From the NCBI GenBank assembly GCA_964511375.1, contig CAZEEW010000001.1, positions 70,512-134,511 on the forward strand: a DNA stretch of 64,000 nt, given 5' to 3'. This document shows positions 29,139 through 56,052 of the stretch, piece after piece. A program made the translations under genes and the position numbers. Source of the DNA: an uncultured Gammaproteobacteria bacterium (GTDB lineage Bacteria; Patescibacteriota; Patescibacteriia; Magasanikbacterales; GWA2-37-8). Positions within the stretch are counted from its first letter, which is position 1; every line of letters begins with the position of its first letter. Under the pieces are notes generated by a model. That model was not told where the DNA came from, did no database searches, and saw only the letters and a list, made by a program, of their open reading frames with translations.

Positions 29139-30860
29139 CTATTCTTTAGTTACACGTAGTATTTCACTAATTGTGGTAATGCCAATTTTGGCTTTAATCA
29201 AGCCATCTTCTAACATTGTCAACATGCCGTGTTCGCGGGCATAATTTTTAATTTCCTCAGCGGTGCCACGATTGTTAATGATTTGGGTTAGTTTATCGTC
29301 GATTTCCAAAACTTCGTAAATACCTTGTCGTCCCTTATACCCAGTGTCGCCGCATCTTCGGCAGCCCGTGCCTTGGTAAAAAATCATACTGGCCAGGTTT
29401 TTTTCTTTTATCTTAATATCTCCGTATTTTGTAAATAGTTCTCCCATCTTTTTAACATCGAATATCTTCAAGAGGTCAGCAATCGCGGCTTTATCTAACT
29501 TGTATTCTTTTTTACAGTGTGGACAGATTTTTCTGACTAAACGTTGAGCAATAATAATGTTAGCGGTAAAGGCGACCAAGAAAGGCGGAACACCCATGTC
29601 TGTTAGGCGAGGTAGGGCGGTCGGTGCGTCATTTGTATGCAGTGTCGACAATACCAAGTGTCCAGTCATGGCCGAATGAATAGCGATCTCAGCAGTTTCT
29701 TCATCGCGGATTTCTCCGACCATGATAACATTCGGGTCCTGACGTAATAAGGAGCGCAAGCCTGAAGCAAAGGTAAATCCTACTTTGGGATTAATTTGGC
29801 TTTGGTTTACCCCAGCAACGCGGTACTCGATCGGGTCTTCGATGGTTGAAATGTTTACACCCGGTTGGTTTAAAATACCAAGAACAGAATACAAGGTTGT
29901 GGTTTTACCAGAACCAGTCGGACCGGTAACCAAGATCATGCCGTGCGGTTTCTTAATAGCGGATTCAACAATTTCTTTAATTTTTGGTAAAAACCCAAGC
30001 TGATCCAAAGTTAATGGTTTTGTTCCTTCATGTAGCAGGCGCATAACAATCTTTTCACCATCATATACTGGTAGAATAGACACACGAAAAGCCAACTTCT
30101 CATCCTGCACTTGTATTTTAAAGCGCCCGTCCTGTGGCACCATGTGCTCATCTAGCTTTAGATTAGCCAAAATCTTGATTCTTGCAATAATACCATTTTG
30201 AATCGCTTTTGGTAGGGTCATGACAGGTTTTAAGACGCCATCAATGCGGTAACGAATAGTCACCTCTTTTTCGCCAGGCTCCATGTGAATATCTGAAGCA
30301 TTTTCGTAAACTGCGTGCTCTAAAATACTATTCACGATATTTACTACTGGCAATTCTTCCGCTGCCTTTTTTAGGTCCTTGGCGTTTATCGTCCCAGTTG
30401 GGTCAGTAACAATTTTCAAATCATCTTCCAGCTCCGCATGATAACGGCGTAGAGCATCTTTGAGATCAGACGGTGTGGTAATAAACACGTTCGGTTCTAA
30501 TCCAGTTTTACGACGCAGGAATTCGATTGTTTGAATATCGGTCGGATCAGTCATGGCCAGTTTTAGTTCAGTCGCGTCTTTGTCAAAAGCAACAACCTGG
30601 TGAGTGCCAGCCAGAGGACCAGGAATAAGATTCAAAATTTCTTTTTTAATTTCTTTTCCTTTTAAACCAATAAATGGGAAATCCAAATACTTTCCAGCCT
30701 TTTCATAAAGCTCTTCTTCAGAAATTTCTCCTTCTGCAACCAGGGCGTCTTCCAACTCCTTATTTTGTTTTTCAGCTTTAGTAGATACCGAGCGTAAAGC
30801 CGAAGTAGAAATAAGTTTATACTTTTTAATAACTTCTTTTAGTGTGTCTGTAGGTAACAT
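29139..30860 (-). CDS. pilB: Type IV pilus assembly ATPase PilB (GspE family)
   Basis: Walker A GPTGSGKTTTLY, a tetracysteine motif (CPHC...CRRC), and a T2SSE N-terminal domain. Confidence 0.9.
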   Translation of the reverse strand: MLPTDTLKEVIKKYKLISTSALRSVSTKAEKQNKELEDALVAEGEISEEELYEKAGKYLDFPFIGLKGKEIKKEILNLIPGPLAGTHQVVAFDKDATELKLAMTDPTDIQTIEFLRRKTGLEPNVFITTPSDLKDALRRYHAELEDDLKIVTDPTGTINAKDLKKAAEELPVVNIVNSILEHAVYENASDIHMEPGEKEVTIRYRIDGVLKPVMTLPKAIQNGIIARIKILANLKLDEHMVPQDGRFKIQVQDEKLAFRVSILPVYDGEKIVMRLLHEGTKPLTLDQLGFLPKIKEIVESAIKKPHGMILVTGPTGSGKTTTLYSVLGILNQPGVNISTIEDPIEYRVAGVNQSQINPKVGFTFASGLRSLLRQDPNVIMVGEIRDEETAEIAIHSAMTGHLVLSTLHTNDAPTALPRLTDMGVPPFLVAFTANIIIAQRLVRKICPHCKKEYKLDKAAIADLLKIFDVKKMGELFTKYGDIKIKEKNLASMIFYQGTGCRRCGDTGYKGRQGIYEVLEIDDKLTQIINNRGTAEEIKNYAREHGMLTMLEDGLIKAKIGITTISEILRVTKE

Positions 30861-30933
30861 AAAAATCGCAAAATTTTTGCAATTTAATTATATCACATTA
30901 TAGAGTTATGATGAAGTAAGAAAAATATATTTG

Positions 30934-30942
30934 TGGTATACT
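30934..30942 (+). promoter_or_regulatory. Extended -10 element TGGTATACT driving island 1
   Basis: Same TGGTATA(A/C)T form as host promoters at 11952 and 40757(-). It ends 9 nt before the ATG at 30952. Confidence 0.4.
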
Positions 30943-30951
30943 CTAAGTGAG

Positions 30952-31285
30952 ATGCTGGCTCGGAGAGGAGGTGAGCGATGAGCCAGTTCAAGCGAGGTCT
31001 ACCACCCGACCTCAAAGCAATGGGTGGCCAGGTTTTCTGCCGGGAGCGGTTTGGTACAATCGTCGGTTACTCAACCGACGCCGCTCGAGGCAGACGGACT
31101 CTTCTTGTTCTCCAGGTCGTTCCTGGGTTCGGGGCGCAGGTGCTCCGGATTTCGGAGAATGACCACGATCTCTCGCGTGTGAGACTGGCGACGGCTTCGC
31201 CATGCTAGCCCCACGCGATAAGAAGGAGGCCTCGTGGCCTGCCTGATTCTCTTTGGCGCCGTTAAACACCTCGCGGCGCCCCTTC
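30952..31285 (+). other. GC-rich island 1 (foreign-composition cassette)
   Basis: Abrupt AT-to-GC switch at ATGCTGGCTCG. Contains an SD, a 76-aa ORF and G/C hairpins at 31227-31240 and 31255-31280. Confidence 0.8.
30978..31208 (+). CDS. Hypothetical 76-aa protein (island 1)
   Basis: A strong SD (GGAGAGGAGG) lies 6 nt upstream of the ATG. No family recognised. Confidence 0.55.
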   Translation: MSQFKRGLPPDLKAMGGQVFCRERFGTIVGYSTDAARGRRTLLVLQVVPGFGAQVLRISENDHDLSRVRLATASPC

Positions 31286-31288
31286 ATT

Positions 31289-31325
31289 AAAAAAAATAAT
31301 TAGCCGCCCTGATTTAAGAGCGGCT
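31289..31325 (-). terminator. Intrinsic terminator of the DNPH1-like gene
   Basis: On the minus strand: AGCCGC-N12-GCGGCT followed by a T-run (aattatttttttt). Confidence 0.7.
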
Positions 31326-31736
31326 ATTGTTAAATATTTGTTCAATCAGAACGGGTAAATTGTCTGGCGTGGCGTAAGTGAAAATCTCTACTTCCGTATT
31401 GCCCTTAATCATAGCGGATAATTTGTAGGTGTCCTTGCCTTGGTAAAGACAGACAACTCGTTTTTTTTCGTTCAAAGCCTGAGCTATTTCATATCCTACA
31501 CCCAAGCTTGGTGTGGTTACTTCAGCAATTACAACATTACTATTTAAAATGTTTTTCATTTCTCTGTCATGAATTTCCTCTTTACTTAGGTCGGTTTCCC
31601 CGTATACAGTAATATTTTCGTCAGCGACCTGAGCAGATAAAACTCGGCCGTATTTTTGTAGTTCCCCAACTATTGTTGCATATATTGGCAACATGGCCCG
31701 TCCGCCCCGTATCGAACCAGTAAAGAAGATGTTCAT
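31314..31736 (-). CDS. 2'-deoxynucleoside 5'-phosphate N-hydrolase (DNPH1/Rcl-like; nucleoside 2-deoxyribosyltransferase fold)
   Basis: FTGSIRGGR, VVIAEVTTPSLGVGYEIAQA and LSAMIKG match the recalled DNPH1 motifs FCGSIRGGR, VVVAEVTQPSLGVGYELG and LSAMIRG. Confidence 0.8.
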   Translation of the reverse strand: MNIFFTGSIRGGRAMLPIYATIVGELQKYGRVLSAQVADENITVYGETDLSKEEIHDREMKNILNSNVVIAEVTTPSLGVGYEIAQALNEKKRVVCLYQGKDTYKLSAMIKGNTEVEIFTYATPDNLPVLIEQIFNNSRS

Positions 31737-32539: not shown

Positions 32540-32822
32540 ATGCGCTAGAATAACAGCTTTTTAATTATTTGTCAAATACATATTTACAATCTCATGCCTG
32601 GACTATTGCTAGGTATCCAAAAGTCTGCTATTATAAACGATCATCTTCAAAAAAAGAAGATGTTCAAATAATATTTACAAGCTCCTTAAAATTCGCAAAA
32701 AAGGCAAATTCAATCTGGCGAACCAACATTTTCTTTTAATTTTAGAAAAAAATGCTGGCTCGCCAGAAGGTCGTTCCTCACGGTGGGGGATGACTGGAAG
32801 GTAAGTTGGAAAGGAAAAAGAG

Positions 32823-33986
32823 ATGGAGTCGGTCCGTCTCTTGTCCTGGAGCTTCGTTCACGTGCTCCAGATGATTCTCAACCTCGCCCGGCGCGGCGGG
32901 GTCGACTTCTCCAACCCCGGTCTCCTCCGTGAGGCCCTGAACATCCGGGCCTGGGAGGCCCTCGACGAGTTGGGGCGCGACCCCAAACACTTGTGGCGGC
33001 TTACGCCGCCCCTGCACCAGGTTTACTCTCGGGCCCTGGCTTACGGAGCTGGGGACAGGTGTAGCCATAATCAGGTCTACATGGCAGCCGAACAAGCCAC
33101 CAGTCTCGCCGAGGTAGCACTCGGTGAGGTGGGGTACAGTTGGCTGTCGCGGCGTCAGGTTGCTGCTCAGCTGATCTACGCACTGGCGAATGAGATCCAG
33201 GGCGATCCGCACGCCCTGGACGCAGCCGAGCGTCAGTCCCGCTCCGAGGCCTTCCTCCGGGAGTTCTACGGGTGCGGGTGGGACGACCCCGACCCCGAGC
33301 TCCAGAAGGAAGTTGAGTACTACGAGCGCCAGCTCGGGGTGCTCTACTGCCTCAGGGCGATCGCGGTGCTCACCGAGCATCCCGAGCTCGACCTCGTCGA
33401 GCTGACCCGCCAGGGCCTCATGAAGTACGGGGTCGTGGACACCCGGGGCCGCCGGGTGTGCTACTGGTGCTCCGGTGCCCCCTGCGTCTGCGGTGGGCGG
33501 AAGGGCGGGATGAAGGCCCGCCGGCCGGAGATCACCTCCGACCTCGTCTGGGCCCGGGGACTGCCGGAGATGGACCAGCACATGGTCGTCTACGGCGTGT
33601 CTCGGAACTCGGCCATCAACGCCCTCGCGGGTGTGGTTCGCTCCCTGTCGGAGGACGGTGGGGAGTACGGATGGATCAACCTCATGTCCCGCTGTGGCGG
33701 GACGAACCGGGGAATCCAAGAGAGGCTCGGCTGCCTCTACCTCGGCAGCAGCCGGCACCCCCGCATGGCGGCCAAGAAGTTCGACGCCGAGGGCGTGCCT
33801 CTCATCGAGGGGCTCTACTCGGAGGCGGCGGACGCCGTCGTCTCCTGGCCCTGCCTCGTGACACAGGCCTTCGGTCTGCAGTTCACAAGGTCGGTCTTAC
33901 TCGGTCTCCAGCACATGGCCGATGGCGCCGGGGTCACGCTCGAGACCCCAGACGATCTGACCCGGACCATCCCGGTCCGCGAGTAG
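32823..33986 (+). CDS. Hypothetical 387-aa protein with Cys cluster CYWCSGAPCVC (island 2)
   Basis: Longest ORF of the island and G/C-dominated third positions in this frame. The other long ORFs here are off-frame or antisense shadows. No family recognised. Confidence 0.7.
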   Translation: MESVRLLSWSFVHVLQMILNLARRGGVDFSNPGLLREALNIRAWEALDELGRDPKHLWRLTPPLHQVYSRALAYGAGDRCSHNQVYMAAEQATSLAEVALGEVGYSWLSRRQVAAQLIYALANEIQGDPHALDAAERQSRSEAFLREFYGCGWDDPDPELQKEVEYYERQLGVLYCLRAIAVLTEHPELDLVELTRQGLMKYGVVDTRGRRVCYWCSGAPCVCGGRKGGMKARRPEITSDLVWARGLPEMDQHMVVYGVSRNSAINALAGVVRSLSEDGGEYGWINLMSRCGGTNRGIQERLGCLYLGSSRHPRMAAKKFDAEGVPLIEGLYSEAADAVVSWPCLVTQAFGLQFTRSVLLGLQHMADGAGVTLETPDDLTRTIPVRE

Positions 33987-34187
33987 TCGCCTCGCCGGCT
34001 GTCCTTCGGGGCGGTCGGTGGGCATGGTTTAGAGGTGGGGCGTTTCTCTTAGGGGAGACGCTTGCGCCTCCCCTATCCCAGTATTTCTTAATTCAAGGAA
34101 TGTTGAGATAGGAGGCTCGTAGACCGACGTGTTTTCGTTGGGCGCTCGGTTGAGCGCACGGCGAAACACCAAACAGAGGGAGGACAA

Positions 34188-34547
34188 ATGGTCCACAAGG
34201 ATCTCAGAATCGAGCTGGTGCTCGGCGGCGTCACTTTTATCATCGTTGGCTTCCTCGAGGCAGGCGAGGAAGTGATCACCGGTGATGAAATGAAGCGTCG
34301 GCTGGCGGCCCGCTCCTTGCGGCTCATCCACGGGGCGGATTTCGAGCACTTCTCTCGCTACCGCGAGGATTTGCCGAAAGAACTCCGACCTCACCTACTG
34401 GCCACAGACCAGTGTGCTCCAGAGTGCCAGAAAGAGACGACCGTCTTCGAGTTCTTCGAAGATGTGGAAGTGTGGCACTCGTTCTGGCACAACCTTTGCG
34501 GCCCGACATGGGGCCACAACGTCTTGGCGGTGTGCTGTTGTGTGTAG
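34188..34547 (+). CDS. Hypothetical 119-aa protein ending in CCCV (island 2)
   Basis: Strong SD AGAGGGAGGACAA-ATG and GC-rich codons. No family recognised. Confidence 0.6.
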   Translation: MVHKDLRIELVLGGVTFIIVGFLEAGEEVITGDEMKRRLAARSLRLIHGADFEHFSRYREDLPKELRPHLLATDQCAPECQKETTVFEFFEDVEVWHSFWHNLCGPTWGHNVLAVCCCV

Positions 34548-34555
34548 GAGGGAGC

Positions 34556-34585
34556 GGTGCCGGCGGGGGACCCCCCGCCGGCACC
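34556..34585 (+). terminator. G/C hairpin closing island 2
   Basis: GGTGCCGGCGGGGG-a-CCCCCGCCGGCACC. The T-run begins only 9 nt later, so this is not a canonical intrinsic terminator. Confidence 0.55.
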
Positions 34586-34691
34586 CGTAGTCCCTTTTAA
34601 TTTAAATCACTAGCGTTGTTTTATTATAACTTACCTCTTGATGTACTAAATAATTATTTGTGATATACTTCATTTATTCTAATTCTTAATT

Positions 34692-51694: not shown

Positions 51695-51751
51695 CTTATG
51701 TATTCCATTTAGCTTCTCTGTAGTCTTTAGCTAACAAGTGTTTGCTAGTTA

Positions 51752-52066
51752 AGGGCCGGGACAGAGAAGCTGTCCGCGGGTTAAAGAGTATGGGAACAGC
51801 TAGGTGGTTCGTCGATCACCGCCTTCGCTGTAGAACAGCGAGGGTAGCGATTGAGAAGAACACACCTCCCACAACCGTCACGCGCTTAGGTTCGCGCGCA
51901 AGATCGTGGAACAAGCCGTCCCCGGTAAGGTCACCGCTCGCGCAGGCCAGGAGTCCGCAGATGATGCTTGCGAACACGGCTCCAGCCACGAGAGCGAGGA
52001 CTAGCCGAACGATCGCTTGATCACACTGCTGGGTCATTTGACCCCTCCATGCCCCCGCAGGGGCAA
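51752..52066 (-). other. GC-rich island 3 (foreign-composition cassette)
   Basis: Abrupt composition switch on both sides. Hairpin GCCCC-tgcg-GGGGC lies upstream of the SD, and GGACAG-N5-CTGTCC lies downstream of the stop. Confidence 0.8.
51816..52037 (-). CDS. Hypothetical 73-aa two-TM membrane protein (island 3)
   Basis: SD GGAGGGGTCAA-ATG at the internal Met of the 91-aa ORF. Two hydrophobic helices (IVRLVLALVAGAVFASIICGLLA; VTVVGGVFFSIATLAVL). Confidence 0.6.
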   Translation of the reverse strand: MTQQCDQAIVRLVLALVAGAVFASIICGLLACASGDLTGDGLFHDLAREPKRVTVVGGVFFSIATLAVLQRRR

Positions 52067-52081
52067 GTTGGAATAGACAAG

Positions 52082-52110
52082 ATTTAATCACGAAAATGAG
52101 TTATAGTCAA
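52082..52110 (-). promoter_or_regulatory. TTGACT-N17-TTAAAT promoter-like element reading into island 3
   Basis: Counted on the minus strand. Lies in the AT-rich gap shared with the divergent gene at 52121. Confidence 0.4.
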
Positions 52111-55291: not shown

Positions 55292-55349
55292 CACATTCAT
55301 ACATTGGACGTGATTTGTTTTTTAATAGCGAAAATTGCTGTTAAAAAAC

Positions 55350-55988
55350 ATGTCTCGTCCAGGGCGGACGGGAGTAAACCCGCAACGGGAGAGTTCAGAT
55401 GAAGAGCCTGGTGTCGTGTTTCGTGCTGGTCGCCCTGTTCCTCAACCTGTTCGGCTGCATCGAAGCGGCCGAGTTCAACCACTCCGACGCGACGACCGTG
55501 TCGGAGGACGTGGCTAGCGTCCAAGACGTCTCCTTGCCAGAGGAGAACGACATCGCCATCAAGATTCCCCGGGCGGAGTGCCCGGAGGCAACAGCCGGAC
55601 CATACACGGTCCGAGTTGTGATCGACGCCACGACCTGGGTCAGGATCTCGTCCGAGGTAGAGCGTGTCTTCCTCAGCCGGGAGCTCGATGCAGATCGGAT
55701 GGACACGGCCGAAATTCGCGTCGAGTCCGCCGGGTGCGATTTCCAGTTCGCCATCAGCAACAACTCCACGGAGGTCGCGCACGTCTCTGTGGAAGCCCCG
55801 ACAGGGGTTTCCATCACCATCCGGTACGCCCGTGGCGGATCCGAGACCGTTCCCGCGAACGGTTTCAAGCAGGCGATCGTCTACACGGTCGGTAATGTGA
55901 AGTACTACTTCCATTACCAGCCGCCGGGCTGAGCACCAAGGGCGGCAAGTCGCCGCCCGCGAGGCTGCCGCATCGTACTGGCCCTCGT
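55350..55988 (+). other. GC-rich island 4 (foreign-composition cassette)
   Basis: The composition switch falls exactly at an ATG (55350). Contains a lipoprotein ORF, with hairpin GGGCGGC-N5-GCCGCCC (55940-55958) after the stop. Confidence 0.8.
55399..55932 (+). CDS. Hypothetical lipoprotein, 177 aa (island 4)
   Basis: Signal peptide with lipobox LFGC, very high G/C at third positions, and SD-like GGGAGAG 7 nt upstream. Confidence 0.7.
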   Translation: MKSLVSCFVLVALFLNLFGCIEAAEFNHSDATTVSEDVASVQDVSLPEENDIAIKIPRAECPEATAGPYTVRVVIDATTWVRISSEVERVFLSRELDADRMDTAEIRVESAGCDFQFAISNNSTEVAHVSVEAPTGVSITIRYARGGSETVPANGFKQAIVYTVGNVKYYFHYQPPG

Positions 55989-56052
55989 ATTCATTATTAA
56001 TCCTTTGGGGTTGGTAATGAGTACTTACTTCCAGTACGCTTGCGAATAAAAA

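Follow-up and report, generated by a model that had tools for sequence, protein, structure and literature searches.

This report concerns island 1 (30952-31290), a GC-rich block within a 64,000-nucleotide stretch of contig CAZEEW010000001.1 (the window), and the gene and the messenger RNA (mRNA) structure that it carries. The block has 57-60% GC and sharp edges; the window averages 41.7% GC and the flanks 23-40%. On one side, pilB starts at 30860 and is divergent from the island (T2SSE match, E=1e-130). On the other side, a Nuc_deoxyrib_tr-like (DNPH1-like) gene, convergent with the gene of the island, ends at 31314 and has its own terminator (31301-31326). Between them lies ORF76 (30978-31208, plus strand; ATG at 30978, TAG at 31206-31208), which encodes a basic protein (pI 10.3) of 76 amino acids, predicted to be all-beta. 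Its Shine-Dalgarno (SD) sequence, GGAGGTG (30967-30973, plus strand), is located 4 nt before the ATG and is predicted to be exposed in the loop of a hairpin, H1. A preliminary description of this DNA had proposed an SD-driven open reading frame (ORF) and had regarded a conserved RNA structure as the explanation that could take its place. Both ideas hold for the same DNA: the structure exists, and it overlies the coding sequence (CDS) without replacing the coding.

Island 1 recurs with the same sequence in two read sets assembled independently and in one NCBI record, and is therefore not an assembly artefact or a chimera. The Logan contigs L001 and L002 are the same sequence as the window and carry no comparative information. 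The sharp boundaries of the GC-rich block, ORF76, both SD sequences and both 3' hairpins were all recovered where the preliminary description had placed them. The host genome is patescibacterial; the TrmB-like protein encoded nearby is closest to those of the species representatives 'Patescibacteria group bacterium' and 'Candidatus Peribacteria' (41-47% identity).

ORF76 is, from sequence comparison, a protein-coding gene under purifying selection. Its length alone is unremarkable because long chance frames arise in GC-rich DNA; the island also contains an open frame of 91 codons on the opposite strand and frames of 52-71 codons in other frames. An exhaustive HMMER search found three relatives of 76-77 amino acids (E=1.4e-20, 2e-10 and 1.5e-7), and a profile search with these first relatives enlarged the family to seven distinct members. 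The frame of 76-77 codons is kept in all seven copies in the codon alignment and is the only one of the six frames that is free of stops across them. Insertions and deletions (indels) among the copies comprise whole codons only. In close pairs, substitutions at codon positions 1/2/3 number 6/6/22, 6/10/23 and 8/8/23, and the ratio of nonsynonymous to synonymous divergence (dN/dS) is 0.18-0.21 (0.13-0.59 across all pairs); between clades, synonymous sites are saturated (dS 0.9-3.4). The SD is unchanged (GGAGGTG) in six copies and reads GGAGGCA in L020. The proposal of a real SD-driven gene of 76 codons is thus borne out by a dN/dS of about 0.2, by the only frame open in all seven copies and by the kept SD, and the coding call and the family are both solid.

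The family is restricted to a few genomes of the candidate phyla radiation (CPR; Patescibacteria). All homologues are located on CPR/Parcubacteria-type contigs, and one is annotated as a hypothetical protein of 'Candidatus Parcubacteria bacterium'. A word-indexed protein search with the single ORF76 sequence returned only the query itself, a result that would wrongly suggest a singleton ORFan. A metagenome scan for ORF76 returned only copies identical to known members and did not enlarge the comparative set. Four further proteins with exhaustive-search scores against ORF76 (P0009, P0012, P0013, P0014) were rejected as relatives: their scores were summed over repeats, the hhalign probability is 0.16%, and they are beta/gamma-crystallin, Big_6 or CarboxypepD_reg repeat proteins or junk translation.

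ORF76 belongs to a module with a fixed order: an extended -10 promoter (TGnTATAnT), the leader CTGGCTC(G/A)-N-GGAGGTG-N-ATGAGCCAG, ORF76, the 3' untranslated region (3' UTR) motif AAGGAGGCC-loop-GGCC-nn-CCTG, and a terminal GC hairpin. In the window, the promoter reads TGGTATACT (30934-30942, plus strand), has no recognisable -35 element and has a predicted transcription start at about 30948-30951. Its T, G and TATA-T are unvarying in all six loci that span the region upstream of ORF76, and the spacing from the -10 element to the leader hairpin is 12-15 nt in every copy. The AAGGAGGCC motif begins 13-18 nt past the ORF76 stop. Each locus has a single copy of the leader motif and of the 3' UTR motif, and the window contains no other. 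The module copies have 56-68% GC, their host contigs 39-44%.

The module is found in different gene contexts. In the window and in L019, it lies between pilB and the Nuc_deoxyrib_tr - TrmB gene pair; in L013, pilB lies upstream and other genes lie downstream. In L014-L018, it lies between genes encoding a transketolase and a methyltransferase, a context unrelated to the first. The gene downstream of ORF76 is convergent in four of the five contexts. The co-oriented downstream gene of L013 is located about 210 nt away, beyond an AT-rich spacer with its own TGGTATAAT. A leader-peptide transcription attenuator was also considered, as the short ORF that follows ORF76 overlaps the terminal hairpin, yet no co-oriented downstream gene is close, and this candidate was rejected.

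As a whole, island 1 is best explained as an autonomous single-gene transcription unit, a reading that, together with the mRNA structure and its role described below, is considered fairly probable. The extended -10 promoter would drive a transcript of about 335 nt ending at the GC hairpin 31255-31280, both ends of this transcript being predicted.

Promoters of neighbouring genes were also observed. Those of the divergent pilB (window 30886-30897, minus strand) and transketolase (L014, L017) genes read TGATATAAT, and a site at about 6400 of L013 is likewise listed. The lineage appears to use extended -10 promoters (TGnTATAAT) that lack a recognisable -35; a standard -35/-10 scan missed all of them.

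RNA structure was tested because GC-rich blocks in AT-rich genomes are a classic signature of structured non-coding RNA (ncRNA) (PMC6429828). The RNAalifold consensus of the seven codon-aligned CDSs has an energy of -56.3 kcal/mol, against -22.0±3.6 kcal/mol for column-shuffled alignments (z=-9.4; 0 of 60 as low). The signal persists when the shuffles also preserve codon position (z=-8.6) and when the alignment is reduced to four sequences that represent the clades (z=-7.2). Folded as the antisense strand, the alignment attains no more than -32.1 kcal/mol, and G·U pairs outnumber A·C pairs 60 to 14; this excess assigns the structure to the sense RNA. When synonymous codons were shuffled, protein and codon usage being kept, the real codon order folded better in five of the seven copies (z=-2.7 to -4.6). 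Calibration was carried out on nine 234-nt windows taken from the DNPH1-like gene, the TrmB-like gene and a GC-rich gene, ORF387, in the same loci and with similar divergence. These controls give -0.1 to -21.3 kcal/mol (z=+1.25 to -2.8), with 11-39 predicted pairs, 1-10 of them compensatory; the ORF76 CDS has 55-63 pairs, 22-24 of them compensatory.

Applied to the full transcripts (alignment A5), RNAalifold yields a predicted consensus of 13 helices with 80 pairs. The two partners can pair in 90.8% of the alignment cells, against 83.7±0.8% in shuffles. Changes on both sides of the helix are found in 27 of the 80 pairs, a count that none of 500 shuffled alignments attains (12.4±2.5) and that exceeds the 2-12 obtained by displacing the partners by 1-3 columns. 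GC content in the CDS is 71% at paired and 51% at unpaired positions; at third codon positions the values are 71% and 55%, against about 38% in host genes.

The predicted structure comprises seven hairpins, all on the plus strand. H1 (30955-30986) is the leader hairpin. Its 8-bp stem is formed by CTGGCTCG (30955-30962) and TGAGCCAG (30979-30986), a pairing also written as CTGGCTCG with UGAGCCAG, around a 16-nt loop that holds the SD; it lies a few nucleotides from the predicted 5' end and has a predicted free energy of -10.9 to -16.6 kcal/mol (about -11 to -17) in every copy. The start codon lies at the base of the stem, and the 3' arm contains the UG of this codon and codons 2-3. H1 is unvarying in six of six loci, even where AGC and CAG could change synonymously. 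The leader motif CTGGCTC...GGAGGTG...ATGAGCCAG is invariant and occurs only once per locus, at this position.

Four covarying domains are predicted in the CDS. H2 (31001-31028; codons 8-17) pairs ACCACCCG with TGGGTGGC; four of its eight pairs show double-sided compensatory change, the arms being CCACCC/GGGUGG, CCACGC/GCGUGG, CCGCGC/GCGCGG or CCCCGC/GUGCGG. H3 (31032-31095; codons 19-40) is a three-part hairpin including helices 4-8, in which 86-100% of the cells are paired and seven pairs change on both sides; its apex, GTCGGTT/AACCGAC (31062-31079), is 98% paired and has three compensatory pairs. H4 (31115-31164; codons 46-63) corresponds to helix 9, with 20 pairs, of which ten are double-sided, and 85% of cells paired. 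H5 (31171-31218; helices 10-11) closes over the last part of the CDS, stop codon included: its outer arms are TCTCG (31171-31175) and CGCGA (31214-31218), and a small inner hairpin lies at 31188-31200; five of its eight pairs change on both sides and 90-91% of cells are paired.

Two hairpins follow the CDS. Both (AGGCC-tcgt-GGCCT, 31227-31240, and GGCGCCG-N12-CGGCGCC, 31255-31280) had been noticed in the window, and both are conserved in the homologous loci. The full form of the first is a masked-SD hairpin (31224-31244), in which AGGAGGCC (31224-31231) pairs with GGCCT-g-CCT (31236-31244) around a TCGT loop. Its motif, AAGGAGGCC...GGCC..CCTG, is unvarying in six of six loci and is found once in the window, against 0 expected by chance; the same fold is predicted in every copy. 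The invariance of CCTG is accounted for by the pairing of AGGAGGCC with GGCC-n-CCU in every copy. The second is the terminal GC hairpin (31255-31280), a presumed intrinsic terminator, in which GGCGCCGT pairs with GCGGCGCC and which is followed by a poor U-tract (CCUUCAUU). All its cells (100%) are paired in the six loci, in three forms: GGCGCCG/CGGCGCC, GACGCC/GGCGTC and TGGCGC/GCGCCA. Only one long-range helix between the 5' and 3' parts is predicted, with 4 invariant base pairs.

Alternative pairings were also observed. GAGGT (within 30993-30998) could pair locally with ACCTC (within 31008-31013). In an RNAalifold alternative, AGGT pairs with the invariant GCCT of the 3' UTR (31241-31244), the same GCCT that pairs with the AGG of the SD-like sequence. 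In ORF76, the synonymous positions of codons 7-8 (CGA/AGA GGT) and 12-13 (GAC CTC) are frozen in seven of seven sequences. All positions of these mutually exclusive pairings (GAGGT/ACCTC, AGGT/GCCT and AGG/GCCT) are invariant, and the pairings could constitute a switch.

Several observations weigh against a fold selected along the whole transcript. Two copies show no signal with synonymous shuffles (L014, z=+0.5; L017, z=-1.0), and the inner part of H4 is less well kept or broken in the same two. The covariation statistics are weak, as they derive from seven distinct sequences in about four clades and the counts ignore phylogeny. Pairs were counted on the alignment that yielded the structure, which is circular; the calibration on ordinary genes reduces this problem without eliminating it. 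Being invariant, the leader hairpin and the 3' SD-like hairpin provide evidence neither for nor against pairing, and the terminal hairpin lacks a good U-tract. Structure does not fully explain composition, since unpaired third positions have 55% GC against about 38% in the host, and other GC-rich islands remain GC-rich in relatives without a conserved structure. With these points included, a conserved mRNA structure with compensatory changes along nearly the whole ORF76 transcript is well supported by the alignments. Selection on structure appears to be a major reason for the GC-richness of the island, but only part of it.

The protein was described as a small beta-rich product without recognisable family, and this description stands. 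An AlphaFold2 model built from the seven-sequence alignment (pLDDT 82.4, pTM 0.67) has six strands, a short one at the N-terminus among them, and a helix of a single turn; its fold is that of an SH3-like five-stranded barrel. All members of the family are basic (pI 9.6-11.9), with a grand average of hydropathy (GRAVY) of -0.11 to -0.40. Structural likenesses include the KOW domains of NusG and Spt5, the Tudor domains of PcrA/UvrD, PWWP, BAH, eL27, CarD and HspQ, with a sequence identity of 10-20%. Foldseek searches of the model found no match below E=0.05 in the PDB (best matches: the HEX-1/eIF5A N-domain and Mfd) or in BFVD (lowest E not under 0.07). At E<=0.1, Pfam gave only chance-level matches to DUF4256 and MAPEG and no KOW or Tudor model; NCBIfam, PHROGs and PADLOC gave no match, and the best match of a profile search against PDB sequences was the RimM PRC-barrel (E=1.3). 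The model thus supports a small basic SH3-like barrel of KOW/Tudor-like shape; this is a statement of shape and assigns no family. By analogy, the most likely role of ORF76 would be binding to nucleic acid, RNA polymerase or the ribosome, because KOW/Tudor-like domains usually do so. Known barrels of this type (NusG/Spt5, PcrA/UvrD, CarD, Mfd, eL27) are domains of larger factors, whereas ORF76 is free-standing with its own promoter, has no Pfam KOW/Tudor match and shares only the 10-20% identity given above. ORF76 would thus represent a lineage-specific, uncharacterised family of basic KOW/Tudor-like proteins with RNA polymerase, ribosomes or RNA as possible targets.

Downstream of ORF76, a second SD-like sequence, AAGGAGG (31223-31229), is followed 4 nt further on by the GTG of an 18-codon mini-ORF (31234-31290, plus strand; TAA at 31288-31290; product MACLILFGAVKHLAAPLH), which overlaps the terminal hairpin. 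This frame had been put forward as a possible hydrophobic peptide gene. Each of the six loci with a 3' UTR retains the SD-like sequence and, 4-6 nt after it, a start codon (ATG in five, GTG in the window); the peptide, its length, its frame and its hydrophobicity are not conserved. The six products (MACLILFGAVKHLAAPLH, MGSPACFWRRKHLAAPF, MGLPERFWRRQTPRGAPLFV, MANLVLTPRYGSGVKFYITSKKFIKFLKNFFNFINF, MARLVLTPRRRSGVKFYTIV and MGLPALALRTPWRQSVYA) have 18, 17, 20, 36, 20 and 18 amino acids. They share only their first 3-4 codons, which overlap the conserved RNA hairpin, and the frame is shifted even between relatives whose ORF76 genes are 83% identical. The product is hydrophobic only in the window (GRAVY 1.44, against -0.56 to 0.29 elsewhere). 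In every copy, AGGAGG is predicted to be fully base-paired, with the A/GUG at the junction of loop and stem. The mini-ORF is probably not a functional peptide gene; the preliminary description had named a frame not conserved in homologous loci as a refuting observation, and on that count the peptide is refuted. The conserved SD-like sequence and start may belong to the 3' hairpin motif, or may mark a site at which the act of translation counts and its product does not.

The proposed mechanism can be described as follows. The ORF76 mRNA would be selected for a defined fold, made of an invariant 5' hairpin, four covarying CDS domains, an invariant 3' hairpin and the terminal hairpin. Most likely, this structure would act in cis, by stabilising the mRNA and controlling the translation of ORF76. 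Control in cis fits the arrangement because the 5' stem-loop shows the SD yet holds the start codon, hairpins span the CDS and the 3' end is closed. The leader and 3' hairpins are invariant while other helices covary, which suggests specific recognition of these two. The basic barrel protein may bind both hairpins of its own mRNA as feedback, for which it is, speculatively, the obvious candidate. Such an RNA-protein feedback module, in which the barrel recognises the 5' and 3' hairpins, or alternatively a folded RNA acting in trans, is considered rather unlikely. The feedback module, if real, would resemble the translational operators of phage coat proteins and ribosomal proteins.

Other explanations differ in what they take the RNA, the frame or the composition to be. 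If ORF76 were a chance frame in a purely non-coding GC-rich structured RNA, the composition of the island within an AT-rich genome (the classic signature, PMC6429828), its strong conserved structure and the long ORFs in other frames would all be expected. The third-position excess, the dN/dS of about 0.2, the invariant SD and ATG, indels in multiples of three only, the single frame open in all seven copies and the confident globular AlphaFold model from the seven-sequence alignment make this reading very improbable. The lack of an Rfam family also counts against it: an Rfam 15 scan of the whole window gave only tRNAs at gathering score, the best matches in sensitive mode for 30850-31400 reached 14-20 bits against thresholds of 50-96, and ARAGORN found no tmRNA, which rules out a known ncRNA family for island 1. 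In a screen of GC-rich intergenic regions (IGRs), about one third of unknown GC-rich IGRs corresponded to unannotated protein genes and about one quarter to short ORFs, and the class of short and upstream ORFs was assigned only if no structure beyond a terminator was possible (PMC6429828). Island 1 has the same compositional signature as the ORFs of that screen; here, extensive additional structure coexists with the ORF. A dual-function RNA, i.e. a structured transcript of about 335 nt that works in trans (base-pairing, sequestration or scaffolding) and also encodes ORF76, would agree with a structure far exceeding that of ordinary coding regions, with two elements invariant in sequence beyond what pairing requires, which suggests specific recognition, and with a stand-alone unit found in differing genomic contexts. 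It is nevertheless unlikely: ORF76 fills 231 of the about 335 nt and contains most of the helices, so that effects in cis fit equally, there is no Rfam match, and no target, partner or unpaired conserved 'seed' was identified. Dual-function small RNAs (sRNAs) are short, stand-alone, structured transcripts that encode a small protein (PMC8915982; PMC12310071), mostly of fewer than 50 amino acids (PMC12310071). The predicted transcript of island 1 would resemble them in being short, stand-alone, structured and coding for a small protein; signatures of structure and of coding are both present. In RNAIII/hld, SgrS/SgrT, SR1/SR1P and AzuCR/AzuC, base-pairing is demonstrated and the ORF, usually of fewer than 50 codons, is a minor part of the RNA, whereas the ORF of island 1 makes up about 70% of the transcript.

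The island might also be a cassette of foreign DNA, GC-rich through horizontal acquisition, its RNA structure being a by-product of composition. At least four GC-rich ORFan islands are found in the intergenic regions of the window, ORF76 occurs in two unrelated contexts, unpaired positions are GC-enriched too, and L013 holds an extra GC-rich cassette of about 750 bp between the pilB and ORF76 promoters. Composition alone does not produce such a signal, however, as the GC-rich ORF387 of the same loci gives only z=+1.1 to -2.2, and shuffles that preserve composition and codon position leave z=-8.6 for ORF76. GC-richness in all clades despite saturated dS (0.9-3.4) argues against a recent acquisition, and the promoter is of the extended -10 type of the host. 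No match was found in collections of phages, plasmids and viral contigs (protein and profile scans of viral contigs, a leader-motif scan and blastn against phages and plasmids were all empty). Foreign origin with incidental structure is thus quite doubtful. The suggestion of a toxin-antitoxin (TA) or bacteriocin-like pair, with ORF76 and the hydrophobic peptide of 18 codons as its two components, did not survive comparison with the relatives and is now highly improbable. The perfect SD-like AAGGAGG with a start 4-6 nt on in six of six loci and the hydrophobic peptide of the window (GRAVY 1.44) speak for it, and the strongly folded mRNA with its masked SDs recalls the type I toxins of the hok family. 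A type II TA or a bacteriocin/immunity pair should comprise two conserved adjacent products, and the mini-ORF peptide is not conserved in sequence, length (17-36 amino acids) or frame; five of the six peptides are not hydrophobic, and the predicted hairpin leaves no base of the SD-like sequence free. ORF76 itself matches no toxin, antitoxin, bacteriocin or defence family in Pfam, NCBIfam, PHROGs or PADLOC. A type I toxin should be a small hydrophobic membrane peptide, and ORF76 is modelled as a soluble basic beta-barrel with a negative GRAVY. The structured mRNA expected of a type I system is found (z of about -9, 27 compensatory pairs, second SD-like sequence paired), with the first SD in a loop. 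On the minus strand of the island, a consensus scan found only one terminator-like site (31240-31227), no dedicated search for a conserved antisense promoter having been made.

The mRNAs of the hok family have about 350-400 nt, covarying helices throughout, including in the CDS, SD-masking hairpins, a second frame near or over the main one and possibly pairing of the 5' and 3' ends. Island 1 resembles the hok/sok mRNAs (plasmid R1 and chromosomal) in being compact, with covarying helices through the CDS, an SD-masking hairpin, a second frame nearby and possibly 5'-3' pairing. It differs from them in its product, a soluble basic beta-barrel and not a hydrophobic membrane peptide of about 50 amino acids, in that no antisense RNA gene was identified, in that its single predicted long-range helix has just 4 base pairs and in that its loci are chromosomal CPR loci with no link to plasmids or phages. 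Island 1 thus lies outside the toxin-antitoxin, bacteriocin, attenuator and Rfam families, and its organisation is nearest to that of structured coding RNAs (hok mRNAs, dual-function sRNAs). To our knowledge, few bacterial coding mRNAs have a covariation-supported structure over the whole CDS; examples are the hok-family mRNAs and the genomes of RNA phages.

CPR/Patescibacteria genomes are small and AT-rich and contain many unannotated small genes. A GC-rich island can be both a protein gene and an RNA structure, and would be misclassified by tools that assign such islands to 'ncRNA' or 'ORF' exclusively. Should the structure prove regulatory, island 1 would offer a compact, experimentally accessible case in a lineage for which hardly any post-transcriptional control has been characterised; if it serves only mRNA stability, the result is a modest improvement of annotation. 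The feedback or trans readings, if true, would make it a dual-function coding RNA not described before and particular to CPR bacteria, and would provide a selective reason for GC-rich islands in AT-rich, reduced CPR genomes.

The junction that carries island 1 seems to be variable or hard to assemble in three independent metagenome contigs with the order Nuc_deoxyrib_tr - TrmB - ORF387-like (L007, L008, L009), which end within 40-90 nt of the expected site. The remaining 91 nt of L008 encode the C-terminus of a PilB-like ATPase, convergent with Nuc_deoxyrib_tr, which indicates that this relative lacks island 1 there. The extra cassette of L013 (5200-5950, about 750 bp) carries a minus-strand ORFan of 143 amino acids and separates the pilB promoter region from the ORF76 promoter; the sequences on either side of it correspond to the spacer of L019, which is much shorter. 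At the corresponding place, L021 has a minus-strand ORF of 138 amino acids (293-709). From the difference between L013/L021 and the L019 spacer, GC-rich ORFan cassettes appear to be gained and lost there as modules.

Island 2 (32752-34590; 1.8 kb, 63-68% GC) contains ORF387 (387 amino acids, 32823-33986; GC content at third positions 0.86) and an ORF of 119 amino acids (34188-34547), and ends in a perfect 14-bp hairpin (34556-34585). ORF387 has five relatives with 42-69% identity, three of them in the same order Nuc_deoxyrib_tr - TrmB - homologue. These relatives are also GC-richer than their own flanks; no family match was found, and the CDS has no conserved RNA structure. A hairpin (32714-32767) with 26-nt arms, TCTGGCGAACCAACATTTTCTTTTAA and TTAGAAAAAAATGCTGGCTCGCCAGA, lies between the TrmB-like gene and ORF387. 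It is kept by compensatory change in L019 (about 2330-2400), where GCGAACC/GGCTCGC becomes GCAGGCC/GGCCTGC, and could be a regulatory RNA or an operator. The 11-mer ATGCTGGCTCG has two exact copies in the window (about 0.03 expected), at 30952-30962 and 32752-32762, the left edges of islands 1 and 2. It was rejected as an insertion or regulatory signal: the island 2 copy of L019 reads ATGTTGGCCTG and lies in a different covarying hairpin. The sharing is probably a coincidence, though not fully explained.

Two further islands were found in the window. Island 4 (51740-52087, minus strand; 58% GC) has an ORF of 91 amino acids from a GTG (51816-52091), with no family match; a GGAGGGG SD precedes an internal ATG (52037), from which a would-be protein of 73 amino acids with two hydrophobic segments could be read. 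Island 3 (55335-56041; 60% GC) has an ORF of 177 amino acids (55399-55932) with no significant family match. Its N-terminus resembles a lipoprotein signal (MKSLVSCFVLVALFLNLFGC), and GC hairpins are located in its 5' leader and past its stop codon.

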